From IMG/VR virus record IMGVR_UViG_3300029267_000581, positions 1 through 64,000 of that record: 64,000 nucleotides of DNA, one strand, 5' to 3'. Shown here piece by piece: positions 20,767-59,674 of this stretch. Below the pieces are notes generated by a model. The model saw nothing but the letters and a program-made list of their open reading frames with translations. It did not search any database and was not told the origin of the DNA. Position 1 is the first letter of the stretch. The number at the start of each line of letters is the position of its first letter. This DNA comes from a virus. The position numbers and the translations under genes are program-made.

Positions 20767-22224
20767 TTATGGCGTCCGGTAGCCGACGTTGCGGAACTCG
20801 ACCCACCTGTTCGGAATCCTGCACACGAAGGAGATGAACATGACGAGTGCGAACCGCTCCGAGAGGGAGATGTTCGCGAGACCGATGCGAGTGAAGGGGA
20901 GAAGCTGGCTGAGATGCAGCACGTTCTCCGACAGCTCGCCGAGCCAGCACCGCTCGGTGCCAGGCATGTTCTCACCGTTGTCGTCCCAGGTGGTCGTGCC
21001 GCCGGGGGTGACGTTGGCGAGGGAAACACGAGCCACGCAGCCCCAGTCGCTCTCGTTCCCGTCAGCGTCGGTGTCCTTGCGGTAGATCGCCGCGTAGGTC
21101 GGCTGATTGGTGAAGGCAGCGGGGTTGGTGATCGTGACGCGGACGTTCTGCGTCTCGCGCTGGGCGTAGGTGATGGCCTGCGACGCCGGGGTCGACGTGA
21201 CGGGGACACCCTCGCCGTAGCGGTTGCCGTAACTGACCTGATACTCGACGCTGGCCGAGGAGCCGGTGCCCTTGGCGGTGAGCCCGAGGGACTTCCCCCA
21301 CTCGGCAGTGGCGGCTGTCAGCGCGATGGTGACCGTGGGAGCAGGGGACGGCGCGTTGTCGGGGGCCGACGTGACGGGCTGCTCCTTGGTGAGACCGGAG
21401 TAGAGGTACAGGGTGCGCGGGATATACGTCCCGCCAGCGGTCTCGATGCGGTCGATTCGGGAACCGACGACCATGCCCGCGTTGTTCCCCTCGTACTTCT
21501 GCTGGAGGCGGTACGAGGATGCGAAGTCCTCGATGACCTTGTTCGACCCGTACATGCGGTTCGCCACGCCTCGTGCGTCGATGACCACCTGACCGGCCTG
21601 TTTGAGGTGCCCCTCTTCCAGAGGCTCGCCCCAGAGGTTGATCACGGAGTCTGCCCAGGCATCGCGCTCGACGAACGTCTCCAGCCCGTCGATCTCCTCG
21701 AACTCGGCACCGTTGACGCCGAGCTTGGCGTTGCCCTTGAACAGAGCCCGTTCGAGCTGCCCGACGAGCCACATGGTTCCGGTGTCGGTGACCTCTGCAC
21801 GCTTCTCGACGAGAGTGTCCGTGTAGAGGAACGGCATCTCGATCTCGCGGACGTCACCGAGGAACTTGACCAGGGCGACGTTGCGGTCGTAGGCCGCGTC
21901 ATGGCTGAGAGGCAGCTCACCAGCTCGGTAGAAGCCCCCATGCCGCGAACCGACGTCCGTGCGCCGCGCATACTCGATGGCGGTGGAGCGGGCGTTCGGC
22001 TTGGGCAGATCGCGGAAGAACGTGACCTGGCGCATGGTCTCGGTGAGCACGGCCAGAGTGCTTTCGAGGAACTCCAGACGCCAGGCACCGCCACCCGTCT
22101 GGGTCGTGCCGCCGACGTCGTATCCGGCCCCGATGGCCTTCTGGAGTGCGTCGAACTCCTGAGCGGGGACTGCCCCGAAACCGAATCCGGGGGAGCCAGC
22201 CGCGAATGAAGCAAGCTGATTCAT
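20767..22224 (-). CDS. Major capsid protein
   Basis: 485-aa ORF following protease and scaffold. It is preceded by a strong hairpin and GGAGGA. The assignment rests on module order and size. Confidence 0.8.
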   Translation of the reverse strand: MNQLASFAAGSPGFGFGAVPAQEFDALQKAIGAGYDVGGTTQTGGGAWRLEFLESTLAVLTETMRQVTFFRDLPKPNARSTAIEYARRTDVGSRHGGFYRAGELPLSHDAAYDRNVALVKFLGDVREIEMPFLYTDTLVEKRAEVTDTGTMWLVGQLERALFKGNAKLGVNGAEFEEIDGLETFVERDAWADSVINLWGEPLEEGHLKQAGQVVIDARGVANRMYGSNKVIEDFASSYRLQQKYEGNNAGMVVGSRIDRIETAGGTYIPRTLYLYSGLTKEQPVTSAPDNAPSPAPTVTIALTAATAEWGKSLGLTAKGTGSSASVEYQVSYGNRYGEGVPVTSTPASQAITYAQRETQNVRVTITNPAAFTNQPTYAAIYRKDTDADGNESDWGCVARVSLANVTPGGTTTWDDNGENMPGTERCWLGELSENVLHLSQLLPFTRIGLANISLSERFALVMFISFVCRIPNRWVEFRNVGYRTP

Positions 22225-22584: not shown

Positions 22585-23274
22585 CTACTCGGCGTCGGGG
22601 GCTCGCAGGGCGGAGGTCAGGAGTTCCCGACCCTTCTGCGACATCCGGGGAACGATCTCATGCACAGGCATGAGACTCGCGGACGACTCCAGGAGGACAA
22701 GATCGTTCCGCAAGTCCAGCTTGGCGGGATCTTCCTCGGAGGCGGCATCGAAAGCCTTGCGAAGCTCGGCGTTCGCCGTCGCCGCGAGTGCGGCGTTGTT
22801 CAGCGGCGCTGCCGGTGCTGGAGGCGGATCGCCATGAGGCTGCGGCTCGGTGATCGACTTCTGCATCGCTGCCGCCTCGGCCTCGCTCATCGCGGGCCGA
22901 GCACCTGAAGCGGGCTGGGAGCCGATGGCGTCGAGCTTCTCATGAAGCAGCTCCACCTGTTCGGACAGACCCACGAGACCCTTGACGAGCAGCGCGGTGG
23001 CTTGGAGGTTGCCGTTGAGGGCGTTCTCCATCACCATCGAGTTGCCATCGAGAAGCTCGATCTGGGCCTTGAGGAACTCGTCTGCGTCGATGTACTGGAC
23101 CAGCTCGTCGGTGTCGGTGCCCTTCTTGAGCGCGACGGACGGAGCCTGATCAGGCTGCTCCTCGGAAGGCTCCTCGATGGGGTCCTCCTCGGGGGCACCG
23201 TCGAGAGGCTCGGACGAAGCGCCTTTCTGGAGCGCATCGAAAGCCTCGTTGAAGTTGTTTGCGAAATCTCCCAT
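22585..23274 (-). CDS. Scaffolding protein
   Basis: 229 aa from MGDFANNF, with GAGGAGG upstream. It is acidic, helical and low-complexity, and lies between the protease and the capsid gene. Confidence 0.65.
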   Translation of the reverse strand: MGDFANNFNEAFDALQKGASSEPLDGAPEEDPIEEPSEEQPDQAPSVALKKGTDTDELVQYIDADEFLKAQIELLDGNSMVMENALNGNLQATALLVKGLVGLSEQVELLHEKLDAIGSQPASGARPAMSEAEAAAMQKSITEPQPHGDPPPAPAAPLNNAALAATANAELRKAFDAASEEDPAKLDLRNDLVLLESSASLMPVHEIVPRMSQKGRELLTSALRAPDAE

Positions 23275-23285
23275 TGGTTTCCTCC

Positions 23286-24116
23286 TCAGAGACCGAATAT
23301 GCTCATACACGCCTCGACCGGCTGACCGGTTGTGAGGTGCATATACAGAGCGCCTTCGGCCTTCGTCAGGTTGCCGCCTCGAAGCTGGGAGATGCTCCCA
23401 AACTGACGACAGACAGCCTCGTGTTGCTCGCCATTCCGTGCAAGCTCATCTCTCAGGTTGAACGGAATCAGATCACCTGCCGAGACGGGAGTAGTCCCGG
23501 AAGCCTTCTGAATCGCACCAACCAGAGACCGAGCAAGCCGGTCCATCACGTCGCCGTCGAATGGCGGCGGGTTGAACTGCTCCGCCGGGACCTCTTCGTC
23601 CAGAGCGATCCCCTTGAGCAGCGCCCGAACAGGGGCGTTGTCGTTCTTGGGATTGCCCGTCACGGCGATGTTGAAAACGGTTGCCTTCTTGACCGTACCC
23701 TTCGGAGACCGCGCACCGACCTTACCTTCCAGGGAAAGCCCGAGGGTGCGTTCGACCTTGTCCTCCTCCAGAGACTTTGCGAGCTTCCAGACCGAGGGGG
23801 CCATTGGCCGCGACGGCAAAAGCTCCAGCTCCGTGTAGAGGCACTTCCCGAAGCCTGGACGGTCACGCAACTCCGCGACCAGGGGGACGCCGATGATCCC
23901 ATCGGGGTCTTGCCGGTGGTTCCAGTTGACCCACCCCTTCTTGAGCAAGGGCTTGACATCAAGCCCTTCCTGCAAGACCCGTTCACCATCGTCGTCAAGT
24001 GTTGGGGCAGAAGCCCACCCGTACAAAAGCATTCGCTCCTTGTCCGTGCCTGCGCCAGCCTTCACCAGACCAACGTCGTCGAAGGCGCAGACAATGTCTG
24101 TTCCGTGCTCGTACAA
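23286..24116 (-). CDS. Prohead maturation protease (HK97/S78-like)
   Basis: 276 aa with a TTG start 7 nt after GAGGAGG. The VNWNH and LGLSLEGK motifs resemble the His and Ser regions of HK97-type prohead proteases. Confidence 0.75.
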   Translation of the reverse strand: MYEHGTDIVCAFDDVGLVKAGAGTDKERMLLYGWASAPTLDDDGERVLQEGLDVKPLLKKGWVNWNHRQDPDGIIGVPLVAELRDRPGFGKCLYTELELLPSRPMAPSVWKLAKSLEEDKVERTLGLSLEGKVGARSPKGTVKKATVFNIAVTGNPKNDNAPVRALLKGIALDEEVPAEQFNPPPFDGDVMDRLARSLVGAIQKASGTTPVSAGDLIPFNLRDELARNGEQHEAVCRQFGSISQLRGGNLTKAEGALYMHLTTGQPVEACMSIFGL

Positions 24117-24118
24117 AC

Positions 24119-27100
24119 TTAGTCCTCCTCATCATCCGTGCGTGGCTTACCTACCGGGGGAAGGGTCAGATTTACCTGCACCGGAGGTGATAGTACCGCC
24201 TTCGTAACAACTGCCCTTCTGGCTTCTGAACTGACTGTACCAGGCTTGGTCTCTGCGGACCTGGACGGGGGTGGAGCTTCCACCTTGGGCAACATACGCT
24301 CGACCTGTATAACGCGCCTCGTCCTGTCTCTGCCACGAGTTTCGACAATGACTGGACGGGTAGACGTAGCAGTCTCCCTCGGCTTCTTCTGGTCCTTGCG
24401 TGGGTGCATAGTACCGCCACGCTCGACGGGCCTATCACCAGTAGCAAGAGACTGAGGGCGTACCACGTCACCTTGCTTGTAGCTCAAAGGCGGCGAAACA
24501 AAGATGGTTCTGTGCTCCATCCTGTCACCTGATCGCTGTTGGATCGCCTCCTGCCCACCAGGGGACTTCATGGCGGCATCCCACAGCTCCAGGAGGTTTG
24601 TAGCCACCCGTGTACGCAGTAGCGGATCGTGTTGTACTGTCTCGTGCGGAGGGGGGCGCTCACCGGGAGGTGTTTGTATGCCCGAAATCTCCTGTGACCG
24701 AGCCTTGGCCTTCTTGCCAGCGGCGCGAACGATCTCACCACCACGCTCGGCTGCCTCGGCTAGCTCCAGAACCTTCGCTGTCGCCTCTCGACGAAGACGT
24801 CTGCTTGTCTGATGACGGGGGTTATACACACCTCTTTGCTGAGACGGCTCGATCTCGCCCTCTTCGTTTACACCAGCCATCGGGAAATCCTGCCCACCCT
24901 CGGTCAGTCGGCGGAAGGCGACCTTGCGTTCGTTACTCCGTGACCAGGCTTCCCTCTCCGGTGTACCAGCGGCAGGAATCTGGGGGGTCTCCCCAGTGTG
25001 CCCCTCGAATCCAGGCGGAATATACCAGTTGGCGGGGTTTGCAGCCTCACCTAGAGCGAACTGCTTTCCGGTAGGAACCCAGCCTTTGCGTAGATTCACG
25101 ATCTCTGTGACAGAAGGAAGAGCGTTGGGGTGCCCAGGTGTGAGAAACCCGTTCATCTTCACGAGCTTGCGAAGCTGGGAAGCGCGTTCGTGCCACTTCT
25201 CGAAATCTTCCTTCTCCACAATGGAGTACAAAGGCTGCCAGGGGTACTGGCGCTCCTCAGAAGAGCCCGAGTGCAACATCTTGTGGTTGTAGACCTCGGG
25301 CTCATTCCAGCTTGCGTGGGCTCCTGGAAGCCTGTACCGCCTACGCATAGTAGGACCAGACTCGACCTTCGGCGGCACAAATGTTGGGTCGGCTGAAGCC
25401 AAACGAGCAAACCGCCTACGCCTCTCGACGTCGGCAGGAAGCTCCTGTCCAGGCTTGGGTCGACTGCGAGCGGCGAACCTTGAACCCTGACCACGGCTTT
25501 CTGCGATCTCTCGCATGACGCGCTTACGAGCGGCTATTGCCGATCTTTGTCGGATCAGCGCGTCACGCTCGGCGTCGGCTAGATGCAAAGGCCCCAAAGG
25601 ACCCATATCCATCGTTTTGCCGTGTTCCTTCAGCTCCTCCGTTGTGACGCCACCGTGCTTCCTCTGGTTGTACTCAGGGGAACGGAGCTTCTCGCGCATC
25701 GCCATGTGATAGGCGACAGGAGCGATAGCACCACGGAAGTCAGCCACGTTACGAGGTTGCTCTTCTGTACTCAGCTTCTCCAGGACATCCCTGCGTATGT
25801 TACCGCGAGAGTCCATCGGAACGCCGGGGTAGTTCTGCATCCCGATTGTGGCTTGCCACAAAGGGGCTACAGTTGGAGGCTTGAGCTTCGGCTTTGCCTT
25901 GTCAGTCCGCATCATCTTGCGAATCTGTTTGTTGGCTCTGTCGATCTGCTCCCGCTCGTACTGTATCTGTTGCCAACGATCCTCGACGTCGCTTTTGTCG
26001 AATCCCTTTCCTTGCTTGTTCCAGGACCGACGAAGCTCGTTCTTGGACTTCGGGTGCGCCGCCAGAGTAGCCTCGTTCCGCGAAAGCTGCTTCACGAGAC
26101 CGTCAATGACAGTGCTATCCACCTCGTAGTTCTGATGCTCCAGTGGAAGACCTGGAAACAGCATGAGGTCTAGCATGGCTAGATCGTCAGCATCGAGCTT
26201 GTGGTGGTCTTCCTTCTCCACACCCCAAGCACGACGACGCTCCAGCGCGTTGATGAGTTCCTGCCGCACCTTCGCTGACATCTCCAACGTGGCTATGTGC
26301 GAAGGGTGTACGACGTGGTCAACTGGTATACGAGCAACGATCTCGTCGTTCGGGTCACCCGTCCAGACAGGGTCGCTGCGCCGCCCACGCTCATCGTATG
26401 TATACCGCCAGCCGCGCATTACGCGCTCCTGGTCCATAGGACCCCTGGCACCGACAGTCTGACCGATGGGAGAACCTTGAGATAGCAGGTTGGTCGTGAG
26501 AGCCGCGTCGGCGTACATATCTGCCGGGAGCCCCATTTCGGCCTTACTGCCCCCATCCTCATCCATACCCTCCGGCTTTGATGCCCCAGTCTGGACTGGA
26601 ATGGACCTCTCAACCATGCCCTCAAGGAACTTTTCCCAAGGCTCCTTGTTACCTTTCTTCGCAGCCTCCAGAGCCTTCTGGCCTTTCGGTTGCTCGGCGA
26701 GGTATTTATCAATATCGTACTTCTTGCCCTGCGCCGCTGTCTTGATGGAATCCCATGAAGGCTTTGCCCTGAAAATTCCAGCCATCCTCTCAGCCTGTTT
26801 CGCAGACTCGACGATGTCTGTCCAGATGCGCCACCGCTTCCAGGAACCCCCACGACGCTCGCGCAACGAGATGTTGGCTTGTCGCCACTCCCCGAGGCGT
26901 TCGCCTGCAAGCTGTAGGGCTTCGATCTCTATCCGATCATGCACCTCTCTGGCTATGTGACCAAAGATCGCCATTGCCGAATGTGGATCTAACCCCTTAC
27001 GGACGTGTTGCTCGTTTTCAGGGTCATACGTGATGAGTGCCTCGATGGCGGCTTCAAGACCAGCCGATATGGCACGCTCGGCGTCCTTCTTGGGCACCGT

Positions 27101-28342
27101 AGTCTGACCCCTACGCTGAAAGGCATTGGCGTAGATGTGATCCATCACACCACGTTGCCAGTAGCTCTTGGCCCACTCACCCTCGGGCACCTCGCCCTCT
27201 ATCGGGACAGAGCGGAGAATGCGATTGCCGTCAGCGTCGATGACAGCGTGACGTGCCCCCATGATCTCAGCCATGAGAGTGTCCCACTGGTCTGCTGTGA
27301 TGTTGTTGTCCCTACCGAAAGCAGCCTTGTTGATACTCGGTCGGCCAGAACTGTACGTGACAGGCAGCTTGAGTTCACCCTTGGCTACAGCCTCCAATGT
27401 GCCGAAATACTGATTCGACACAGAGTTTGGCTCTTGCTGCGGGATCTCCTCGACGAACGGATGTGCCTTATCTGGTATGATCGCTTTCAGATCAGCCGAC
27501 ACCCTTGCCCGCATGTGGTTGTTTACGTGCCACTCCAACATCTTCTGCAACTCTCTCTTCTCAGAGAGGGACAGATCGCGAGCAGCGTTGTAAAGCTCGG
27601 GGCGCGGTGTAGCTCCGACCTTGCGGAACTCCATCTCGCCCTTCTCATTCTTGCCGACAGGGATGGTAGCCAACGGCTCTCTCGACTCATGCGGCTTCTT
27701 GAAGATGTTGTCGTGCAACATCCTACGAACAAGACGCTGTAGGTGCTTCGCCCTCTCATCGTCGGGCATCTGCCCCCAGCCGTCCTTGTACTTTATGATC
27801 TCGGCAGCGTCGTTGGCTACCTCCTCGGCTAGCTGGCTTGCCCTCTCAGACACACCAGTACCAAGGTGCGAGATCTCGTCCTCTTTCTTGAGACGCGCCT
27901 CGACGTACTTCTTGCGCTCCCTGTCCTTTATACGCTTCAGCCTGGCTGCGTCCTCTTTCTCGATACCGTACTCGGCACGTAGAACAGAGTCCAGGTTCTT
28001 AGCGTCAAAGGCCGCAGCCGCCATGTCGGCGACCCCGAGGTTGGCAAGGAGGAGAGCCGCGTTGATGCGTTCGAGTGTGGCATGGCCTTCCTTGTGCCAT
28101 GCGTCCCAATCGTCCTCGTCGATGTAGACGATTGCCGGATACGGTCTATCGTGTTCCTGGAGGCGTGGTGCGTCCTTCACCTCCTCGTGTTCCTCGCGTT
28201 GCTTGACCGTCTTCATGTAGCCCTGGTGGTAGATGCCGGTTGGACCGACACCTGGACGCACCCAGACGCGCTTCGCGACCAGCCCTTTTTGGAGAGCAAG
28301 GCTGGTCAACGCCTGGCTATTTCGCGCACCGAGCTTTAGCAC
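24119..28342 (-). CDS. Very large (about 1400 aa) Lys/Arg/Glu-rich protein of unknown function in the head module (internal/ejected virion protein candidate)
   Basis: 1465-aa ORF. The first 58 codons overlap the S66 gene, so a GTG at 28342 (or the ATG at 28216) is the likelier start. I recognise no catalytic motif. Confidence 0.65.
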   Translation of the reverse strand: MLKLGARNSQALTSLALQKGLVAKRVWVRPGVGPTGIYHQGYMKTVKQREEHEEVKDAPRLQEHDRPYPAIVYIDEDDWDAWHKEGHATLERINAALLLANLGVADMAAAAFDAKNLDSVLRAEYGIEKEDAARLKRIKDRERKKYVEARLKKEDEISHLGTGVSERASQLAEEVANDAAEIIKYKDGWGQMPDDERAKHLQRLVRRMLHDNIFKKPHESREPLATIPVGKNEKGEMEFRKVGATPRPELYNAARDLSLSEKRELQKMLEWHVNNHMRARVSADLKAIIPDKAHPFVEEIPQQEPNSVSNQYFGTLEAVAKGELKLPVTYSSGRPSINKAAFGRDNNITADQWDTLMAEIMGARHAVIDADGNRILRSVPIEGEVPEGEWAKSYWQRGVMDHIYANAFQRRGQTTVPKKDAERAISAGLEAAIEALITYDPENEQHVRKGLDPHSAMAIFGHIAREVHDRIEIEALQLAGERLGEWRQANISLRERRGGSWKRWRIWTDIVESAKQAERMAGIFRAKPSWDSIKTAAQGKKYDIDKYLAEQPKGQKALEAAKKGNKEPWEKFLEGMVERSIPVQTGASKPEGMDEDGGSKAEMGLPADMYADAALTTNLLSQGSPIGQTVGARGPMDQERVMRGWRYTYDERGRRSDPVWTGDPNDEIVARIPVDHVVHPSHIATLEMSAKVRQELINALERRRAWGVEKEDHHKLDADDLAMLDLMLFPGLPLEHQNYEVDSTVIDGLVKQLSRNEATLAAHPKSKNELRRSWNKQGKGFDKSDVEDRWQQIQYEREQIDRANKQIRKMMRTDKAKPKLKPPTVAPLWQATIGMQNYPGVPMDSRGNIRRDVLEKLSTEEQPRNVADFRGAIAPVAYHMAMREKLRSPEYNQRKHGGVTTEELKEHGKTMDMGPLGPLHLADAERDALIRQRSAIAARKRVMREIAESRGQGSRFAARSRPKPGQELPADVERRRRFARLASADPTFVPPKVESGPTMRRRYRLPGAHASWNEPEVYNHKMLHSGSSEERQYPWQPLYSIVEKEDFEKWHERASQLRKLVKMNGFLTPGHPNALPSVTEIVNLRKGWVPTGKQFALGEAANPANWYIPPGFEGHTGETPQIPAAGTPEREAWSRSNERKVAFRRLTEGGQDFPMAGVNEEGEIEPSQQRGVYNPRHQTSRRLRREATAKVLELAEAAERGGEIVRAAGKKAKARSQEISGIQTPPGERPPPHETVQHDPLLRTRVATNLLELWDAAMKSPGGQEAIQQRSGDRMEHRTIFVSPPLSYKQGDVVRPQSLATGDRPVERGGTMHPRKDQKKPRETATSTRPVIVETRGRDRTRRVIQVERMLPKVEAPPPSRSAETKPGTVSSEARRAVVTKAVLSPPVQVNLTLPPVGKPRTDDEED

Positions 28343-28352
28343 ACGAATCGGT

Positions 28353-29369
28353 CTAACCGGTGTGCCCAAATGCGTTACCCTCCCGCTCGTCCAAAACCAA
28401 GCAATCTTCCTTGAAAGTGATCTTGGCGCGAGCCCCTGATGCCAACACCAACCCTGAGTAGTCCGGGGCATGGTGACCGAAAGCGACGTTGCAGAACGCC
28501 GGAATTTGTACTCCAAGCCAGCGCAGGGCGTCTCGAACGAGACCCGCTGTGCTCGGGGGGTCGAAGTCGTATCCTATGCGAGTCATGGTGAGCCTGTCGG
28601 CTATGCCCGGAACAGGGCCAAAGCCGATAGCACCACCACCCTCTGCCACAGCTTCTATGAAAGGAGCCATGTGCGTCAAATCCTCATAGAAGCCGATCCA
28701 ATTCAGATCACCTGCTGGATAGGCGTCCTCGACGAGTAGGAAGCAACGCTGGCTCTTCAGATACCGTAGCGTCAGTTGCCGCACAGGACCGGTTATCTGA
28801 TTGAGTGTCCGTAGGCACATCGGAATGACGGTGTAGGGTTCGCTAGATGGGCGCACGGAGGACACGTTCTGAACGTCCACGAACGCATCCATGCGCTTCT
28901 CGGGGTGTTCAACCCACTCCCGCACACGCTGTAGTCCTTCGATGAGAGCTTCTTGCGATCCCATGAAGTTGACGCCGTAGAAACCCATTGCGAGGGATGA
29001 GATCGTTGCCCACAGGACATACACCGAGGAATCGCTTGCCCCGATGACTATGTTCTCCGTCACACGCTCCTGCGTGATGAGTCCGTTGCACATATGGTGT
29101 GCGATACGCGCCGCGCCTGAACCACCATCAGCGCAGATGATCATTCTCCGATCATCCGAGTCCAGCAACTCCAGGAATTCGTCGGCCAGGTCAGCCGCGT
29201 TCTCTGCATTATCACCACCGTCGGTGACGATAGGAGATGAGTGCGGCTTGATACCGTAGCGTCGGACCTTGCTGCCGAGAGCTGATTTGAACCACGACAC
29301 CCGTTGCTGAAGAGCTATGGGCGACGTTAGACCAGAACCGTGCCAGAGTATGACACCATATTCAGCCAT
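28353..29369 (-). CDS. Peptidase S66 family (LD-carboxypeptidase / MccF-like Ser-His-Glu hydrolase)
   Basis: Compared with E. coli LdcA, the following motifs align. ADGGSGAARI matches RGGYGASRLL. IGASDSSV matches GHSDFTAI (nucleophile Ser). LLVEDAYP matches LVLEDINE (Glu). VAFGHHAP matches LDFGHEQ (His). The start ATG 29369 overlaps the upstream stop by 8 nt. Confidence 0.8.
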   Translation of the reverse strand: MAEYGVILWHGSGLTSPIALQQRVSWFKSALGSKVRRYGIKPHSSPIVTDGGDNAENAADLADEFLELLDSDDRRMIICADGGSGAARIAHHMCNGLITQERVTENIVIGASDSSVYVLWATISSLAMGFYGVNFMGSQEALIEGLQRVREWVEHPEKRMDAFVDVQNVSSVRPSSEPYTVIPMCLRTLNQITGPVRQLTLRYLKSQRCFLLVEDAYPAGDLNWIGFYEDLTHMAPFIEAVAEGGGAIGFGPVPGIADRLTMTRIGYDFDPPSTAGLVRDALRWLGVQIPAFCNVAFGHHAPDYSGLVLASGARAKITFKEDCLVLDEREGNAFGHTG

Positions 29370-31320: not shown

Positions 31321-31370
31321 AGGTATACTAATATGTATCCATAACTGCTACCTCGGAAACTTTTTTAGCC
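31321..31370 (-). promoter_or_regulatory. Copy P2 of the conserved promoter-like element (AAAAAAGTTTCCG-N13-GGATACATA ... GGAGGTGCAATG)
   Basis: Lies in the 100-nt AT-rich gap upstream of the MuF-like gene. It has the same GTTTCCG-N13-GGA(TA)CATA architecture as P1, P3 and P4. Confidence 0.5.
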
Positions 31371-33404: not shown

Positions 33405-34334
33405 TCAGGAGTGCCCTTTACGGGCGGCCCGTCTATCCCTGTTGTGCTGTCTGACCATCGAAACGAGGGCTTCCTGAGCCTCGGAAGCAGTCTTGACCGT
33501 CTTGCGCCAGGGCTTTGAGGAGTGCGAGATTGTGTACCCACGGTCGTCACGGGTTACCGTCACACCTTGCAGCTTGACGGTAGAACCGGATTTCATCGTG
33601 GCAATGCTCTTCAGCTTGGCCTGGTTGCGTGATGAACTTTCGTTGAGCTTGTCTGCTCCGCTCTTCAGGCTTGACGTTCTGAGAGAGGGCAGATCCAAAG
33701 GAGCGTCCTCTCTTGGCTTGCGGGCCTCTTCGATCATGCGCTTACGTGCGGCCATACCGGAGCCGGGTTCTGGGTCAGCACGGACGAGAACCGTCTGGCG
33801 CTTCCCTGCCTTGTTGGTGATGACCTTTTTGATGAGAGGTCCTTTCATCAGCAAGGCGTCTGCCTGATCGGAGAGAGATCGGAGGTCGTGCCCTTTCCTC
33901 GCCACACCACCTGGAGAATCCTTTGCACGCACGACAGAAGCAGTAGGCTTCGACCGGGCCTTTTCGGCGGCAAGTCGCTTCTTCACAGAGTCCATCATGT
34001 GACGGTGCGACTCGTGAAGGTGGTACGTGGACGCCATTGAAGCCTGCTGCATGGCGTCAAGATCACCAGACTTCGCCGCCGCAGCGTAGGCGTCGTTGTG
34101 TTTGAGATGCTCTTTGTGGTGGTAGTCAGCCGTAGCCGCGTGCTCCTCGGGAGAGGTTCCCGGACGGATCTTGCCGCTCACGCGACGCGGACCACCGTAG
34201 CGACTGTGCGTCATGGTGAGTTCCGCGCCACTGACCTGATGGGGGGCATCCTGTGTACCGGCCCTCACGTAGACAGTTTGCCGTTTTCCGGCCTTGTTTG
34301 TGATGACCTTTTTCTGAAGGTGCGAACGGTCCAT
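33405..34334 (-). CDS. Basic head-module protein with an internal duplicated motif KKVITNKAGKRQTV(Y/L)VRA
   Basis: 309-aa ORF. The motif occurs at aa 8-25 and aa 169-186. Confidence 0.65.
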   Translation of the reverse strand: MDRSHLQKKVITNKAGKRQTVYVRAGTQDAPHQVSGAELTMTHSRYGGPRRVSGKIRPGTSPEEHAATADYHHKEHLKHNDAYAAAAKSGDLDAMQQASMASTYHLHESHRHMMDSVKKRLAAEKARSKPTASVVRAKDSPGGVARKGHDLRSLSDQADALLMKGPLIKKVITNKAGKRQTVLVRADPEPGSGMAARKRMIEEARKPREDAPLDLPSLRTSSLKSGADKLNESSSRNQAKLKSIATMKSGSTVKLQGVTVTRDDRGYTISHSSKPWRKTVKTASEAQEALVSMVRQHNRDRRAARKGHS

Positions 34335-36247
34335 CAGAGTTCCTCCTCATACCCGAGGGCTTTGAGCATGGCGAACTCACCATCGTCGATGACGTTGCTC
34401 TTGAGGCGGATACCGTACTCGAAGTGGAACTGCGCGGCCTGGTTCATGGCCGCGCGTGCATCCTTGACGATCTTGGTGTGACCGCCGTCGTGCGGACAGT
34501 ACACCCTGAACTGGCCTGCGGGAGTCTTGGTGACCGTGGACCCGAGGATGTCGATGCCAGCGGTCTTGGACGGTGACAGAGCGTTGAGCTTGTCTTCCTG
34601 CTCAGTCATGAGAGGCCGACGGGTATCCGGCGGCTCCGCACCCTTCCCTCTCATGGCTTTCTTCGCAGCCTCCAGCTCCATCGGAGTGAAGCCGTCTGCG
34701 GAGGGTCCTGAGATCTTACCAGGCGCTCGCGGTGCGTCAGGAGCGGAGGGACCAGGCCCCTTCGACGGAGCAGCCTTGACCTTCCGCGCCTTCGGACCCT
34801 TGCTGTTCGGCGGTGTCGCCATGGACGGGGCGGAAGGTCCACCCATGCTCATCGGCGGGTTGTCCATCTGCCACGCATACGGACCTCCCATGTCCTTCGG
34901 AGCAGGAGCGACGTCCTTCTCGGTGGGGCCGCCCGAGGCGAAGCCGGGCAGACCGTAGCTCTTGAAGAGCGCGTCGGCCTGGTCCGCAAGCTCCTCGTAG
35001 CCCTTGCGCGTGAGAGAACAGTTGTCGATGACGTTGCCGCCCTTCTTCAGCTCACGGGCGCAGTCCTCACAGTACAGACCTTCGGTGTTGCCCTTGAAGG
35101 TCAGCTTCTTCGTTGCACGGGACTTACAGCCCTCGGTCTGACAGGCACCTTCCAGGTTCTCCTTGACCGTCGGAGCCATCGCGGCACCAGCCGCCTTCTC
35201 CATCTTGGGCAGGTCGTCGAAGTGGATCGCCGCCATGACCGCAGACGGATCACCACTGAATCCGGCGATGATGTCGTGCGCCTTCCTGAGATCGGTCTCG
35301 GCGTAGCACTCGGCGATGGCTTGGAGAGCCAACATGGGAGCCTGCCTGACGGTCGACTCACCGCCGAGACGGTCGAGCATCGAGACGTCCTGGGGGTTGT
35401 GACCCTTCTGCAAGGCGACATCGTTGATGGGGGCGAAGGTGCGGAGGAACTCGATCCAGTTGTCCGTATTGCACGCCATGTCGGCGGCCACACGCTGCGC
35501 GACGTCCCGCTTGAAGTACGCCTCTTGCAGCATGGGGATACCGGACTTCTGCATCTCCAGCGCGTAGGCTGGGGACATCTTGCTGATCTGAACCAGATCG
35601 ACGTAGCCGTTGGGGACAGTGCCGAATCGTCGGTACATATCCAGTGCGCTCGGATCGCGCGGAACGAAGTGCTCGATGTTGGGCCTGTCCTCGGGAGCGA
35701 GGGACTTGTGCAGGTCCATGGTGACCGCCCTCTCCAGGTACGGGAGAACGGCAGCCGCCGAAACACCCTCGGGAGAGCTGATGTTGATGCCACCGGACAC
35801 CTTGTTGGTCGGTGCCTCTGAGGGTTCCGGTGTAGGCTTGGGGACGTTGCCCGCCTCGTACAAGGAAAGCTCCTCGTCCATGGCATCACGGACAGCCTGA
35901 CGCGCGGCCTCCTCAGAGATGGCGTCGATGCCCTTGAGGACGTTGGGGTTGGCCCCTGCGAGACCGTGGAGCTGATCGAAGATCGCCTGGCTGGCACAGC
36001 GAACGACCTCGTTCTTGAATGCCTGGCTGGCCTTGGCCCAGAAGTGCCGCTTGTCGCCGTCGTTGAAGTACCGCTGACCTTCCTGGGTGCGGTACTTGGA
36101 CCACATATACTGGTCCTTGATCGCGTGTCGTGCAGCCCCCTTGAGAAGCGACGCCACGAACCGACGTGCCTGATCGGGGGTGAGGCTCGGCGCGTCGATC
36201 TGCGCCTTGAGGCGCGGCGCGAGCCCGCTGTTGTAGATCGAAAACAT
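34334..36247 (-). CDS. Large head-module protein following the portal (internal/minor head protein candidate)
   Basis: 637-aa ORF. It has a Pro/Gly/Ala-rich linker and shares an (A/S)DQADAL segment with the 309-aa protein. Confidence 0.6.
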   Translation of the reverse strand: MFSIYNSGLAPRLKAQIDAPSLTPDQARRFVASLLKGAARHAIKDQYMWSKYRTQEGQRYFNDGDKRHFWAKASQAFKNEVVRCASQAIFDQLHGLAGANPNVLKGIDAISEEAARQAVRDAMDEELSLYEAGNVPKPTPEPSEAPTNKVSGGINISSPEGVSAAAVLPYLERAVTMDLHKSLAPEDRPNIEHFVPRDPSALDMYRRFGTVPNGYVDLVQISKMSPAYALEMQKSGIPMLQEAYFKRDVAQRVAADMACNTDNWIEFLRTFAPINDVALQKGHNPQDVSMLDRLGGESTVRQAPMLALQAIAECYAETDLRKAHDIIAGFSGDPSAVMAAIHFDDLPKMEKAAGAAMAPTVKENLEGACQTEGCKSRATKKLTFKGNTEGLYCEDCARELKKGGNVIDNCSLTRKGYEELADQADALFKSYGLPGFASGGPTEKDVAPAPKDMGGPYAWQMDNPPMSMGGPSAPSMATPPNSKGPKARKVKAAPSKGPGPSAPDAPRAPGKISGPSADGFTPMELEAAKKAMRGKGAEPPDTRRPLMTEQEDKLNALSPSKTAGIDILGSTVTKTPAGQFRVYCPHDGGHTKIVKDARAAMNQAAQFHFEYGIRLKSNVIDDGEFAMLKALGYEEEL

Positions 36248-41542: not shown

Positions 41543-41580
41543 AGTATATGTCCACAACAGGCTGCTCGGAAACATTCTTG
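41543..41580 (-). promoter_or_regulatory. Copy P3 of the conserved promoter-like element (GTTTCCG-N13-GGACATATACTCTAGTACAGGGAGG)
   Basis: Nearly identical to P4 over about 25 nt (CCTGTACTAGAGTATATGTCCACA on the plus strand). Confidence 0.6.
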
Positions 41581-51046: not shown

Positions 51047-51090
51047 CCTGTACTAGAGTATATGTCCACAGGCGGCTGCGCGGAAAGTTT
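51047..51090 (-). promoter_or_regulatory. Copy P4 of the conserved promoter-like element (CTTTCCG-N13-GGACATATACTCTAGTACAGGAGGGAGG)
   Basis: Near-identical to P3. Confidence 0.6.
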
Positions 51091-51116: not shown

Positions 51117-51899
51117 TCACTCTTGATCTGGGGCAGGAGGCTCTGGTGATCCGTCTGCGATCACCTCGGACTCCCCATCGCTGCCCTCAAGAGCCAAGCT
51201 GGCCTCACGCACCATCCTTGTGACAGCCTGATGACCAGCGGCATTCCGCTCTGTACGCGCCATGTAAGAATAGACCTGCTCCATGGCCTCGGGGTCAGAC
51301 TCGGTGACCTGCGCGACAGTCCTCTGTTGCTGGGCCTGAGCCTGATTCACATTTACCTGCACACCGGGGGCGTCTGACGTCATACCAGACATCCTTGCCG
51401 CCATGTCGAGAAGCTGTGTGTTCATGTGCATGACTGACTCGACATCTCGCACCTCGGGCTCCAGGGCTTTACGCTCCAGAATCATGCGCGAGATCTCATT
51501 ACCCTCAGCATACACGATGGGGCTGTCCAGTTGTCTTGAGGCATCTATGCGGTCAAGAAGACGACCACCGGACTCGGCCAGAAGTTTGCTGGAAAAAGCC
51601 TGAAGGTTCCCAAGGCGGCGGATTAGCTGCCCGTCCTGAATGGACATAGCCGCCTGTATTATCCGTGCCCTTCTGACCTTCAGAGGCTCGATCTCCCTTG
51701 TAGGGTCACCAGCATTGATGTACTTCGATACCGTCGAATGCGAGACGCCAAGCTCTTCAGCTATCTGCTCAGACGAATACTCCTTACAGTACAGGTCGAA
51801 CATTGCCTCGACGGTATCAACACGGATAGCGCGAGTCTTGCGGTCCTTCTTTTTCTTGCGCTTACTCTTTGGTATTTTGAACTTGAACTTTTTGGGCAT
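51117..51899 (-). CDS. HTH DNA-binding protein with a Lys-rich N-terminus (regulator or small-terminase-like, undecided)
   Basis: 260 aa. EQIAEELGVSHSTVSKYI is a clear HTH. Confidence 0.55.
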   Translation of the reverse strand: MPKKFKFKIPKSKRKKKKDRKTRAIRVDTVEAMFDLYCKEYSSEQIAEELGVSHSTVSKYINAGDPTREIEPLKVRRARIIQAAMSIQDGQLIRRLGNLQAFSSKLLAESGGRLLDRIDASRQLDSPIVYAEGNEISRMILERKALEPEVRDVESVMHMNTQLLDMAARMSGMTSDAPGVQVNVNQAQAQQQRTVAQVTESDPEAMEQVYSYMARTERNAAGHQAVTRMVREASLALEGSDGESEVIADGSPEPPAPDQE

Positions 51900-55793: not shown

Positions 55794-56305
55794 GTCACCT
55801 CCGCATGACCCTTCACCGATAGTGTAGCACTACCGCCGAAATAATTTTGGAAGGTAAGCCGCAATGTCGAACCGATTATCTGGGCGTCCTTCAGCGCAAT
55901 GTACCTACTACCGGGGTTCGTCACAGTATCGAAGATCTTATGCGTCAGGTTCGTAACCCCCACAGCCTTCGCATAGGTCACGACATAAGACTTGTAGATG
56001 CTTCCGGTGTTTCGGACGCTGTGGCCTATTGCGTCTGAAAGCGTAGTTGTTACGTACACAATGGCGCACTCACGCCACTTCGTAGCTGACCCACCACCCG
56101 AGATTGCTGGCCCCTCCAGGTACACCCTAGCCAACCTGAAATCGGAGTGGGGCAGAGTGACGTCCAGATTGAATGACGTACCTGGAGGCAGCGATGTCGT
56201 AGTGTCCGAAAAGCTGACGTAATTCGGAGCAGGATGGTGGTCGTCGACAGTGATCGCTGACAGATCAGCATGATCCCGTAGGTTGAAACCACCAGGCAGC
56301 CTCAT
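55790..56305 (-). CDS. Small beta-rich protein, tandem paralogue 1 of 3
   Basis: 171 aa with MRLPGGF...VDDHHPAP...PPGT. Confidence 0.6.
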   Translation of the reverse strand: MRLPGGFNLRDHADLSAITVDDHHPAPNYVSFSDTTTSLPPGTSFNLDVTLPHSDFRLARVYLEGPAISGGGSATKWRECAIVYVTTTLSDAIGHSVRNTGSIYKSYVVTYAKAVGVTNLTHKIFDTVTNPGSRYIALKDAQIIGSTLRLTFQNYFGGSATLSVKGHAEVT

Positions 56306-57930
56306 GTCAGCCTCACTCCCCAGACCTCGATGTCGTGCGTATTCGACCCGAGGTGGTCGGTGAAGTTGTAGTGGAACTCTTGCGTACCGTCCTCATCCTC
56401 GTAGGTGAGGTCAAGCCATGCCTCGTAATCACCCTCACGTCGGACGAGGATTGCCTTCGGGTCCGTGGTGTAGTCATCTCTTGCATACACCGTCAGCGTC
56501 CACGACAGAGCAGAGGTCTCGACCCGTACTCGCTTGAGCAGAACCTTGTCCTCAAACCCTGTGATGGAGTTGTTGCCCTCGGCCACTCCGGTATCAGTCA
56601 CATTGACCAGTTCTGCGCCTGGTACACTCATGGTCAGTCCTCCCGCCCCGTCAGAGACGGGCACAGTACCAGCGGGTCCGGCTGTCGTCAGGGCCTCGAT
56701 GTGAGCACCCGCCACGGAGACATGCTCCGTTCCGTTGACAGTCTTGGTGCCAGACAGCTCACCGATGAACGCATTGAGGGTTGATCCGACAGCGATCACG
56801 TAGGCTGTCGTCGCCGCAAGTCGAGCGATGACAAGCTCCATGGAGCCCCCACCAGCACCGACGTTGAGACCCGTACCGTTGCCAACACCGCCACCAGTCT
56901 CGAGGATATGCGCGACATAACCCTCGGTCGTACCCGTCGAGAACCTGGCGATTGCAGTACCAGTACCCTGGATGTAGATGTCCTCGCACTTGACATGGAC
57001 ATGGCCTTGTGCCGATGAGGCGTCACCGATACCAAAGCCGTTTTCAAGGTAGGTCTGCTTGACCTCGTACATGAGCACAGAGCCAACACCGACGTTGAGA
57101 GCAGCGATGGCTGTACCAGTGACCTCGACCCGATCTGCCTCAAACCGGGATGTCCCCGAGCCCGAGAGCTTGGAGACTGCGAACCCAGAGGTGACCTTGT
57201 AGACCTCGCGAACCTTGCAGTCTACGTTGTCGTTCAAGGTGATTGTCCCCTCGATGCGGGCGGCTGGAGCCCACAGGGACACCCACGACGGCAGCGTTAT
57301 GTTCTCGGCGTAGATACCCGCGTCGATGACGCAGACCTTGAACCGATTGGTCGAGCTTGGCCCCTGCGCGACAGCCGCCGAGATGGCGCTCGCTATCGTC
57401 TCCTTCGCATAGGAGAATGACCTACCGCTGGCGGCGTCGTCTCCGTGCTTCCCGACGAAGTAGACCTGATCCGCAGACCAGGCTCCAGCGGGGGTCAGCA
57501 TTGAGAGCCCACCGGCCCCATCGGCAGTGGGAACCTGTCCAGCTACCGCGCTGGCTGTTGCGAGGTTCTCCACGCTGATCTCGTCAGTCCCCCCATCGCT
57601 GTGCGAAGCGGCGTGAGCCAGCGGAGTCTGGGGGTCCGCTAGGAGCCCAGCAAGGTCTGTGACGTCGATCTCGTCGACACCCCCATCCTCGTGCGTTATG
57701 GCGTGGAGTCCCACAGGAGCAGCCCCCATGTTGAGATTTCCAGCACCATCAGAGACCGGGACAGTACCAGCAGCACCCGAGGTGTTCAGCTCTTCGATGT
57801 CTCGGGCGAAGAGGTCCGTTGCCCTCATGAGGAACTCAAGGAACATGCGCTTGTCTATGTACGGAACCTTAGTCACAGCGGAGGATAGCCGCTGCAACAT
57901 ATCTTCAAGGATTGAATCGCGAATGCCCAT
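56302..57930 (-). CDS. Tail fibre/tailspike with repeated H..DGG.DEI motifs and a beta-helix-like body
   Basis: About 542 aa from MGIRDSIL. LHAITHEDGGVDEIDV and AHAASHSDGGTDEISV are followed by Gly/Thr/Val-rich repeats typical of beta-helix spikes. Confidence 0.6.
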   Translation of the reverse strand: MGIRDSILEDMLQRLSSAVTKVPYIDKRMFLEFLMRATDLFARDIEELNTSGAAGTVPVSDGAGNLNMGAAPVGLHAITHEDGGVDEIDVTDLAGLLADPQTPLAHAASHSDGGTDEISVENLATASAVAGQVPTADGAGGLSMLTPAGAWSADQVYFVGKHGDDAASGRSFSYAKETIASAISAAVAQGPSSTNRFKVCVIDAGIYAENITLPSWVSLWAPAARIEGTITLNDNVDCKVREVYKVTSGFAVSKLSGSGTSRFEADRVEVTGTAIAALNVGVGSVLMYEVKQTYLENGFGIGDASSAQGHVHVKCEDIYIQGTGTAIARFSTGTTEGYVAHILETGGGVGNGTGLNVGAGGGSMELVIARLAATTAYVIAVGSTLNAFIGELSGTKTVNGTEHVSVAGAHIEALTTAGPAGTVPVSDGAGGLTMSVPGAELVNVTDTGVAEGNNSITGFEDKVLLKRVRVETSALSWTLTVYARDDYTTDPKAILVRREGDYEAWLDLTYEDEDGTQEFHYNFTDHLGSNTHDIEVWGVRLT

Positions 57931-57946
57931 GATCTGACTCCGATCA
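57931..57946. repeat. Exact copy 2 of the dispersed 16-bp element GATCTGACTCCGATCA. On the minus strand it reads TGA-TCGGAGTCAGATC-ATG and links the two fibre genes
   Basis: Identical to 14100-14115. Confidence 0.9.
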
Positions 57947-59674
57947 CAGGTTGTTCGCCAGCACGTTACCCGTACCGGTGTCTGTGTAGGTTCCGGCAGA
58001 ACCATTCACGATGTCACGGAAGTTGTTTCCGGTGCAGATACAGTAGTTACCGGATACTCCGATCAACACCGCAGGATTCACACCGACGCCACCACCGACA
58101 TTGTCGCTCTGCCCGACGTTACCCTCGACAATGCTGGCTTCTGTGAGGTTCACGTCAAAGCCGGCTATGCCGCTTCCGCTACAAGTAACAGTGTTTTCGC
58201 AGAACTTGATCCTGTCACCTGTGCGAATCTGGGCGATGTTACCAAACGACCCAGACTTCAGGATGGCAGCCCCGATGCACGATGAGTAGGAGGCTGTGAG
58301 GGCAGCCGCATTGAAACCACTGAGATCAGTGAAGCTGCCACCATTCACGTACATTGGGTTTCCGAATGCCGTCTCAAACGCGAGAGTGCCTTCTGTGGAT
58401 AGACACTCGACGACATGAAATGCTCCAGTCTCGTGTGAACCGCTGAACGAGTCTTGCTTGTAGTGGACGAAGTTCTGCCCACCGACGAATGAAGGATCTG
58501 GCGCACCAAGGCTCTCACAGTTGAGGCACCAGGAGTGTCCATCATACTGCGTCCTGAAAGCCGACGTGACAGCAATGGCGTATGGGTCGAAGCCTGCCCA
58601 GGAGTTCTCGTACTCAACACGGACACGGATGCAGCGAGAGTCGATACCCAGATCCACCATCGAACCCGGCATCTGAAAAACAACCCCTGTTGGGTCGTCT
58701 GCGCCGAGGAATGTCAGATCGCGAAGACACGCTCCAGTGCCGAGCGTGGCTGCACGGGGATCGTCGTAGACAGTCTTGATCGTGACGCACTCCATCCCAG
58801 CCCCGACGACGTTGACGCCCGCAGGAATCAACAATGGACCGAAAGGCCCACCACCAGCCGCAAGGTCGTAAGAACCTGGACGGATGTAGATGTCCGTGCC
58901 AACAGCCACGCCCTCAATTGCTGCGCGGAGAAGGGCTCCGTTCGTCCCATCATACAGGAAGTCGCAATCCGAGGCCGAGTCTCCCATCGCAGAGTTGCCG
59001 ATGATCAGAGTTGGGGCCTGTGCCCCACCACCACCGCCACCAGGAATCGTGACATCGACAGCACCCGCACCGGCTGACGTGACAGTGACACCCGCACCGA
59101 TGAAGTCTATGACAGTTGTGGCGGGGTCGATCTGTATGCCCTCGTCCTGTACCTCAAGCGGACTGCCCCCTCCTCCAGGAGCGATGTCCTCGCGGATCTG
59201 CTTGAGTATCCGGTACAGCTCTCGCTGTGCTCCGTAGGGGTTGTCAGGCCCGAAGTGATCGAGCCAGTTTGCGAAGTCCCTCTCGTTGTAGGCTGGCAGA
59301 TCCCAGTCCCCGAGATTCCCGCCGCCGGATGCAGCTCCGAGAGACGGGTACGACACACCGGCCACGGTGACTGCATACCCCTCGGAGTCATCGCTGAGAC
59401 CGTTCACTCGCAGAGAGACGACGTACCGCCCATACACGTCGGCGTTGAGCGTGCAGGAGTTACCTGTCGCTCCAACGAGCGAAGCTGCCGAACCTGGGGG
59501 GCGTTCGATGAGTGTCCACTGCCACTTGTACGCTCCGATGTCACCATCGGCTGAATTTGCAAACTCGATCTCATCCCCGGCACCTGCGTAGATGGTCAGA
59601 CCACGAAGCGCCTTGCCGGGGGTGGACGACAGCCCTGAATTCGACTGCGAGATCGAGATCTCGGCCTTTGCCAT
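57944..59674 (-). CDS. Tail fibre/tailspike with an N-terminal Ig/PKD-like segment and a beta-helix-like body
   Basis: 576 aa. PLEVQDEGIQIDPATTVIDFIGAGVTVTS is a fibre-like motif, and the protein has poly-Gly linkers. Confidence 0.6.
   Translation of the reverse strand: MAKAEISISQSNSGLSSTPGKALRGLTIYAGAGDEIEFANSADGDIGAYKWQWTLIERPPGSAASLVGATGNSCTLNADVYGRYVVSLRVNGLSDDSEGYAVTVAGVSYPSLGAASGGGNLGDWDLPAYNERDFANWLDHFGPDNPYGAQRELYRILKQIREDIAPGGGGSPLEVQDEGIQIDPATTVIDFIGAGVTVTSAGAGAVDVTIPGGGGGGAQAPTLIIGNSAMGDSASDCDFLYDGTNGALLRAAIEGVAVGTDIYIRPGSYDLAAGGGPFGPLLIPAGVNVVGAGMECVTIKTVYDDPRAATLGTGACLRDLTFLGADDPTGVVFQMPGSMVDLGIDSRCIRVRVEYENSWAGFDPYAIAVTSAFRTQYDGHSWCLNCESLGAPDPSFVGGQNFVHYKQDSFSGSHETGAFHVVECLSTEGTLAFETAFGNPMYVNGGSFTDLSGFNAAALTASYSSCIGAAILKSGSFGNIAQIRTGDRIKFCENTVTCSGSGIAGFDVNLTEASIVEGNVGQSDNVGGGVGVNPAVLIGVSGNYCICTGNNFRDIVNGSAGTYTDTGTGNVLANNL

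Follow-up and report, generated by a model that had tools for sequence, protein, structure and literature searches.

The window analysed here comprises 64,000 nucleotides, bases 1-64000 of IMG/VR virus record IMGVR_UViG_3300029267_000581, a complete uncultured virus of 87,079 bp with direct terminal repeats. Its largest open reading frame (ORF), as an earlier note on this DNA had pointed out, lies on the minus strand next to the prohead protease gene and encodes a protein of 1416 amino acid residues (aa), referred to below as the giant protein; the next largest ORF specifies 772 aa. The most likely of the readings weighed here, at a probability somewhat short of even, is that the giant protein is head cargo trimmed by the prohead protease, and that a sigma-like core within it targets the host RNA polymerase. 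The gene, its family, the conserved synteny, the motif statistics, and the resemblance of the predicted fold are what the analysis shows.

According to this reading the giant protein would be made late from the head operon and enter the prohead, and the prohead protease would remove a basic leader of 28 residues at ALQK↓G (the arrow marks the putative cut). The mature protein of 157 kDa would stay in the DNA-filled head and leave it with the DNA at infection, and the core would then bind host RNA polymerase, where it could confer phage-specific promoter choice in the manner of a sigma factor or, alternatively, compete with the host sigma. Of this account, we infer the cleavage, the packaging, the ejection, and the binding to RNA polymerase. 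The gene and the features at its N-terminal end are as follows.

24119..28369, minus strand: giant gene, revised extent, from the TTG start at 28369 to the TAA stop at 24121-24119; 1416 aa, 159.8 kDa, pI 9.3, no Cys (open frame, Shine-Dalgarno sequence, public copies, relatives)
28286..28369, minus strand: N-terminal leader, residues 1-28, basic (pI 12), variable in length and sequence among relatives (family alignment)
28283..28297, minus strand: A25-L-Q-K28↓G29, putative prohead protease site (six-frame motif scan, relatives)
28184..28285, minus strand: first conserved family block, residues 29-62 (GLVAKRVWV...G..H.KTVKQR), predicted with low confidence as a basic β-hairpin (alignment, model)

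The Lys-site leader

The peptide A-[LI]-Q-K-[AG] is carried by the major capsid protein (FDALQK↓A), the scaffold-like protein (FDALQK↓G), the protease (GAIQK↓A), a 637-aa head protein (VALQK↓G), and the giant protein (LALQK↓G, K28↓G29). A six-frame scan of the entire 87-kb genome (174,158 residues) found A[LI]QK[AG] five times only, against a chance expectation of about one, and all of these occurrences lie in the coding frames of the five head genes. The head genes downstream of the giant gene are listed here.

23286..24116, minus strand: prohead protease (phrog_1028), containing GAIQK↓ASG (PHROG match, motif scan)
22585..23310, minus strand: scaffold-like acidic protein of 241 aa, with FDALQK↓G near the N-terminus and a second site, VALKK↓G (motif scan)
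20767..22224, minus strand: SPO1-type major capsid protein (phrog_752), FDALQK29↓A30 (PHROG, PDB alignment)

In the capsid protein, the K29↓A30 junction falls, by alignment, at residue 1 of the 439-residue chain deposited for a Staphylococcus phage capsid as PDB 9row; removal of the first 24 residues (...VVK↓SFQTGYG) from the 463-residue chain of 5lii gives this same chain. SPO1 Gp6.1 (9vel), the PDB entry that matches the phage capsid protein best, has DALNK↓A at the same place. Judging from the lengths of the deposited chains, the 439-residue chain is presumably the mature form, in which case SPO1-type prohead proteases would cut after this Lys.

An exhaustive HMMER search over 1.84 billion representatives yielded only seven relatives of the giant protein, 648-1866 residues in length, two of which are encoded on complete viral contigs of 87.4 and 95.8 kb. 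In these two related phages the motif drifts, and hydrophobic-x-Lys↓Ala/Gly is kept in the capsid, scaffold, and protease. The invariant columns of the giant family start exactly at G29-L30, the leader before them being variable, and every full-length relative possesses exactly one [LMI]-x-K-[AGS] in its leader, just before the first conserved residues. This suggests that the leader is removed by the prohead protease, which would place the giant protein in the prohead. The earlier note had surmised from gene position a capsid-internal or ejected protein; that idea gains real support from the conserved position of the gene in two other complete phages and from the K28↓G29 peptide, and the Lys-site leader, a feature read from sequence, is its strongest new support. 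The further options offered there, a genome-ejection scaffold or a highly divergent virion enzyme, found no backing. As a cut signal of SPO1-type prohead proteases we propose hydrophobic-x-Lys with Ala, Gly, or Ser after it, a pattern that could serve to predict head cargo in related genomes.

Three observations concern the same motif in other proteins. The C-terminal part of the protease copies the N-terminal segment of the capsid protein around the Lys site (for example, ITKALGSGFEIGGTDQKGGAAVRKE versus LRKAIDSGYDVGGASQAGGAAWRLE), with 47-60% identity over 30-36 residues in the relatives (genes at 23286-24116 and 20767-22224 of the window; 15384-16307 of L002 and 14349-15302 of L003 in the related phages); PHROG 1028 also matches capsid residues 25-66, and the segment may be a route of uptake into the prohead or of self-cutting. 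A 309-aa protein (33405-34334) has both of its KKVITNKAGKRQTV(Y/L)VR repeats directly after Lys sites (HLQK↓K and ALLMK↓G), and the 637-aa protein (34334-36247) contains VALQK↓G (residue 282) and, close to the C-terminus, AMLK↓A; their counterparts are fused in L002 into one protein of 987 aa, and both may likewise be protease substrates. The 309-aa protein and a 420-aa protein encoded upstream of the giant gene share with the giant protein a Lys-site peptide preceding their own basic motifs. A motif "K/R-x-V...G" seemed common to the three; a hidden Markov model (HMM) of the N-terminal hairpin of the giant protein misses both of the others (best score about -1), so this resemblance is not statistically supported.

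Cultured phages with an SPO1-type capsid have genomes of 130-150 kb, and the present genome with such a capsid measures only 87 kb. As pure speculation, a capsid of similar size would leave internal volume for much protein.

The sigma-like core and the promoter boxes

The second line of evidence concerns a conserved core.

26891..27415, minus strand: sigma region-2-like core, residues ~319-493, with two inserted β-hairpins (model, structure search, features, hhalign)

Few stretches of the family are as well conserved as this core, which is also the only part clearly common to the short relative of 648 aa (P0011). The AlphaFold model of residues 254-592 alone has a mean pLDDT of 73.8 and a pTM of 0.61. 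When it was compared, with no prefilter, with 48,161 PDB representatives, sigma factors made up about 30 of the top 50 rows, including the following, each given with its structure-search score.

sigB, 144 residues aligned: 7.2
SigI6: 7.1
pro-sigK: 6.3
sigma28: 6.2
SigE N-terminal domain, 80/80 residues aligned: 6.2
WhiG: 6.0
T4 gp55: 5.9
sigma32: 5.9
RpoS region 2: 5.8
SigA domain 2: 5.8

Foldseek with the same model also lists sigma chains, at non-significant E values. By ESM-Atlas features, the three top named clusters for residues 310-595 are viral, all at 0.88 and under the 0.9 line; PF04542 is present in two of them (in 52% and 22% of their members), and one bears the name "sigma factor." The family alignment of residues 310-500 was compared by hhalign with five E. 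coli sigmas (MG1655 record), which gave a score of 27.7 (P 0.0017, probability 15%) and aligned residues 377-497 with RpoE 6-121, the same range as the structural matches; YDP(E) of the core falls on KFDP(E) at the end of sigma region 2.2. The 13 decoys, drawn from other parts of the giant protein, reversed alignments, and six other head proteins, scored 9-16 with P of at least 0.2.

On these three weak and concordant methods we consider it fairly probable that the core (~320-495) has a sigma region-2-like fold; a role of the giant protein at RNA polymerase is about half as probable as the fold itself. Because the predicted fold resembles that of sigma-70 region 2, the most likely target would be the host RNA polymerase core. 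The statement in the earlier note that the protein has no recognisable domain holds at the sequence level, and has to be modified in view of this weak fold signal in the conserved core.

A promoter-like cassette, TTTCC[GC]-N13-GGA(TA)CATA, occurs in seven copies between 0.2 and 84 kb, all on the minus strand, which is the transcribed strand. The copies range from the small-gene end of the genome, through the replication genes, to the structural operons, and one of them heads the operon with the giant gene.

31321..31370, minus strand: cassette (GTTTCCG, 13 nt, GGATACATA) heading the operon with the giant gene (pattern scan)
216-241, 31340, 41547-41572, and 51061-51086 in the window, and 76392-76417, 81347-81372, and 84299-84324 beyond it, minus strand: cassette copies (pattern scan)

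No minus-strand terminator-like site was found between the cassette at 31321..31370 and the capsid gene. The pattern is present in neither of the two related phages, one of which (G002) has its own class of boxes, ending in GGATAGG, at 9124, 16652, 31195, and 58828. PF04542 (sigma region 2), PF00940 (T7-type RNA polymerase), and PF00623 (multisubunit polymerase catalytic domain) are unmatched in the present phage and in both relatives, three genomes each rated 100% complete. Should transcription of the whole genome depend on a single promoter class, and that class on a phage factor, the factor would already have to be there at entry, which fits a packaged protein. A 260-aa ORF (51117-51899 of the window, minus strand) adjoins one of the cassettes and has a weak helix-turn-helix of the Sigma70_r4_2 type (23.3 bits, cut-off 25.7); it is possibly a small transcription regulator.

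The gene, its family, and its neighbors

The earlier note had placed a gene for about 1400 aa at 24119-28342; the ORF is real and the stop end is kept, and only the start has been moved. One open frame on the minus strand, 24119..28516, holds the gene. TTG 28369 (1416 aa) is most likely the true start rather than GTG 28342, because GGGAGGG stands 8 nt upstream of it, because an identical 1416-aa protein (P0002) is found letter for letter in public collections, and because the residues added by the TTG start (GTPVRPIRVLKL) are conserved in the two closest relatives, P0005 and P0006. P0002 heads a 90% cluster of three members, the sources being JGI, Logan, and ENA. No Shine-Dalgarno sequence precedes GTG 28342, and a start at ATG 28216 would lose conserved residues. 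The gene overlaps or abuts both of its neighbors: 17 nt at its start are shared with the end of the S66-like gene, whose stop lies at 28353, and its last codons contain the Shine-Dalgarno sequence of the protease gene, as the earlier note had observed.

28378..28384, minus strand: Shine-Dalgarno sequence GGGAGGG, 8 nt before the TTG start (read directly)
24124..24130, minus strand: GAGGAGG in the last codons of the giant gene, Shine-Dalgarno sequence of the protease TTG at 24116 (sequence)

The earlier note had also raised the possibility that a frameshift or artefact conceals several smaller genes. That such genes were joined by a sequencing or assembly error is scarcely credible: the identical 1416-aa product occurs on four contigs and the other 1416-aa member of the cluster on four more (JGI, Logan, ENA), relatives of 1385-1884 aa align end to end, and the coding signature (GC1 > GC2 < GC3) is kept along the whole gene. 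The protein is very hydrophilic and largely helical, with a long basic tail modeled at low confidence. A count of its composition (A 10%, R 9.5%, E 9.2%, K 6.6%, P 6.8%, no cysteine) agrees with the Lys/Arg/Glu richness described earlier, and so does the end of the sequence, ...PRTDDEED, with the description of a Pro/Arg-rich C-terminus closing on acidic residues. The regions outside the leader and the core are given below.

27694..28147, minus strand: N-terminal helical domain, residues ~75-225, opening with an invariant Y-x-A-I-V-Y-x-x-E-x-D strand and an LLAN helix (alignment, model pLDDT 60-79)
25880..26452, minus strand: middle region, residues ~640-830, with small β elements and a long helical hairpin (752-826) matching only generic hairpins (model)
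24122..25858, minus strand: C-terminal 579 residues, basic (pI 10), mostly modeled at low confidence, with an acidic end, DDEED (model, alignment)

The C-terminal part contains short conserved motifs (ATxGM.N.PG.P, A.H.A...L..P.Y, PLLR, and PPS) with linkers of differing length between them. For residues 1-1200, a model built from a 10-sequence alignment is mostly helical with a mean pLDDT of 55.5, and its matches are generic helical ones (tape measures, coiled coils, the hairpin 752-826) along with some sigma rows. Two other identities were considered and dropped. The polyprotein reading was rejected because there is no second conserved site inside the protein: no second strict protease site was found, and two relaxed matches are not conserved. 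As for a tape measure, the tail module has a separate ORF of 772 aa, which the earlier note took for the tape measure and which has no match in PHROGs.

The giant protein has no match in Pfam, PHROGs, or the PDB sequences, even when the family profile is used. P0002 matches no Pfam family at E ≤0.1, and the other six members give a single Pfam match in one of them, BAG6 at a chance-level E of 0.072, and no meaningful PHROG match. A tblastn search with three family members as queries found nothing among 50,697 GenBank phages, and searches for the locus in JGI metagenome contigs and 185,579 prokaryote genomes gave no relative. A word-indexed search of 5.8 billion proteins, by single sequence and by alignment, returned only the giant protein itself; the alignment search missed relatives that HMMER detects. 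The earlier note had recognised no polymerase, nuclease, ADP-ribosyltransferase (ART), or peptidase motif, and no such signal emerged from any method used here; DxDxD, HExxH, and Walker A strings are absent from the giant protein.

Six long relatives align with the query over nearly its full length, in conserved blocks joined by linkers of variable length, and the conserved residues are mostly Gly, Ala, Pro, and hydrophobic ones. The head modules of the two complete related phages are colinear with that of the present phage: portal, MuF-region proteins, QueC genes, S66-like gene, giant gene, protease, scaffold, and capsid. Identity to these relatives is 59-61% for the capsid protein, 54% for the portal, and 42-44% for the protease, against only 25-28%, in patches, for the giant protein; the scaffold and other accessory genes behave alike. 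The sequences delimit a tiny, lineage-specific family of proteins of 160-210 kDa encoded in the head module.

Upstream of the giant gene lie the 420-aa gene, a QueC-like gene, and the S66 gene, and downstream the protease, scaffold-like, and capsid genes, in line with the neighbors described in the earlier note; the 420-aa gene, called a MuF remnant there, has no match in Pfam or PHROGs. The phage has a contractile tail, as indicated by sheath and baseplate wedge genes, and its SPO1-type capsid protein is about 30% identical to those of Herelleviridae. Its genome also encodes DNA polymerase A, a DnaB-like helicase, UvsX, SbcCD, a TGT/DpdA-like enzyme, and three QueC paralogues. Elsewhere in the window, two adjoining ORFs of 567 and 576 aa (56302-59674, minus strand) have no PHROG match. 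Both related phages (G001 and G002) contain long collagen-like repeat runs, with GGGCCAGGG-type 9-mers present 20-29 times, and these are not seen in the present phage.

Rival readings and known systems

Several findings weigh against a packaged, polymerase-targeting protein. PF04542 is unmatched up to E 10 in all ten family members, and a six-frame search of the genome gave no match to it either. Where region 2.3 of sigmas has the aromatic residues for melting the -10 element, the core has Ala and Leu (DPxxAxAxxxxVA, in a low-confidence hhalign alignment). No region 4 signal was found: PF08281 has no match in the giant gene, hhalign of residues 500-600 gives no signal, and only weak winged-helix-like rows came from the structure search. 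The core model is derived from a 10-sequence alignment, and the cut after Lys is deduced from PDB chain lengths and motif sharing. Three QueC-like genes and the S66-like gene, which are not obviously virion proteins, share the operon, and position alone is therefore weak evidence. The tblastn search revealed no cultured relative. Finally, a sigma-70-type pair is an alternative reading of the boxes (TTTCCG as -35, CATAAT or TATACT as -10, 16 nt apart), so some host sigma might use them.

It is possible, though unlikely, that the protein is a packaged and trimmed cargo or structural component of the head interior, with the sigma resemblance a coincidence of helical packing; it could then fill the head, organise DNA, aid ejection, or act as anti-defence cargo. 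The leader motif and the synteny speak for this exactly as they do for the favored reading, and it gains from the facts that all sigma signals are sub-threshold, that the melting residues of sigma are not conserved, that over 900 of the 1416 residues do not belong to the sigma-like part, and that the C-terminal 579 residues resemble a flexible chain dotted with short motifs. Set against coincidence are the convergence of three kinds of method on the same family and residue range, the lack of that signal in all 13 decoys, and the conservation of the sigma-like part, including its retention in P0011. Even without a role at RNA polymerase, the giant protein would represent a new head-module family of 160-210 kDa in a lineage with no cultured member.

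A more specific form of the favored reading, which we hold to be somewhat less likely than mere coincidence, is that the giant protein is a virion-carried, sigma-like factor, packed through its leader and ejected with the DNA, directing the host core RNA polymerase to the TTTCC[GC]-N13-GGACATA class, found from the first-entering end to the structural operons. From the first minute no host sigma or phage polymerase gene would be needed, and related phages would hold co-diverged pairs of factor and promoter box; binding of the core to host RNA polymerase, if true, would explain a private promoter class in a phage with no sigma or polymerase gene. Rather unlikely is a giant sigma-like factor that is synthesised within the host during infection, serves the phage promoter class, and stays out of the head. 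The sigma-like signals, the failure to find any other sigma or RNA polymerase gene in the three genomes, and the non-structural enzymes in the same operon all agree with it, but the giant gene itself stands behind a promoter of the same class, so that the factor would be needed before its own synthesis; moreover, the head-protein motif is kept in the leader throughout the family, and the size and long basic tail are unlike any known sigma. An enzyme or carrier that partners the S66-like hydrolase and the QueC paralogues in DNA or protein modification is improbable: the start of the giant gene does overlap the end of the S66-like gene, and the cassette of the two genes recurs in both relatives, yet no search gave a catalytic motif or enzyme fold, and the conserved residues are of the Gly, Ala, Pro, and hydrophobic kinds.

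The proposed protease-trimmed, polymerase-targeting cargo has a close parallel in phage T4, whose internal proteins IPI-III and Alt carry a capsid-targeting leader, are cut by the prohead protease gp21, and are ejected with the DNA; Alt acts on host RNA polymerase. Like these, the giant protein is encoded with head genes, has a short N-terminal leader apparently ending in a peptide of the other head proteins of its phage, and would be expected to travel with the DNA and act early on the host. Unlike them, it has no sequence similarity to the T4 proteins, is 2 to 15 times larger, and has no ADP-ribosyltransferase or other enzyme domain; its putative site is hydrophobic-x-Lys↓Ala/Gly/Ser, whereas that of T4 is Leu/Ile-x-Glu. 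The resemblance to sigma-70 region 2 (PF04542, including the minimal phage sigma, T4 gp55) lies in the predicted fold of the core, the language-model features, and a weak profile match. The giant protein departs from the sigma-70 family in its two β-hairpin insertions, the lack of a Pfam match, the non-conserved region 2.3 aromatics, the lack of a detectable region 4, and the embedding of the core in a head-operon protein of 1416 aa.

Polyvalent proteins are defined by MuF, ART, PBECR, methylase, helicase, and LPD domains (Iyer et al. 2017, PMC5512222). The giant protein resembles them, and packaged giants of the P1 DarB type, in being very large, encoded among the head genes of a portal-terminase phage, and likely delivered with DNA. 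None of their defining domains is detectable in it, as against the two or more effector or LPD domains by which a polyvalent protein is recognised, and its conservation is not mosaic, the protein being retained colinearly as a single unit.

Very large proteins that travel in the virion and initiate phage transcription upon entry include the N4 virion RNA polymerase (vRNAP), gp66 of crAss-like phages, and the phiKZ virion RNA polymerase. The giant protein differs from these in having no PF00940 or PF00623 match and no DxDxD or D[FY]DGD string, and the N4 vRNAP row in Foldseek for the 1-1200 model has an E of 1.2 and a TM of 0.04. Some phages are known to carry RNA polymerases in their heads (N4, phiKZ, crAss-like phages) and others to carry polymerase-modifying enzymes (T4 Alt), and a literature search found no paper describing a phage head that brings a sigma-like factor. 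In contrast to the virion polymerases, any action of the giant protein on transcription would rely on the enzyme of the host, and if its core does bind host RNA polymerase the family would constitute a third route to the immediate takeover of transcription.

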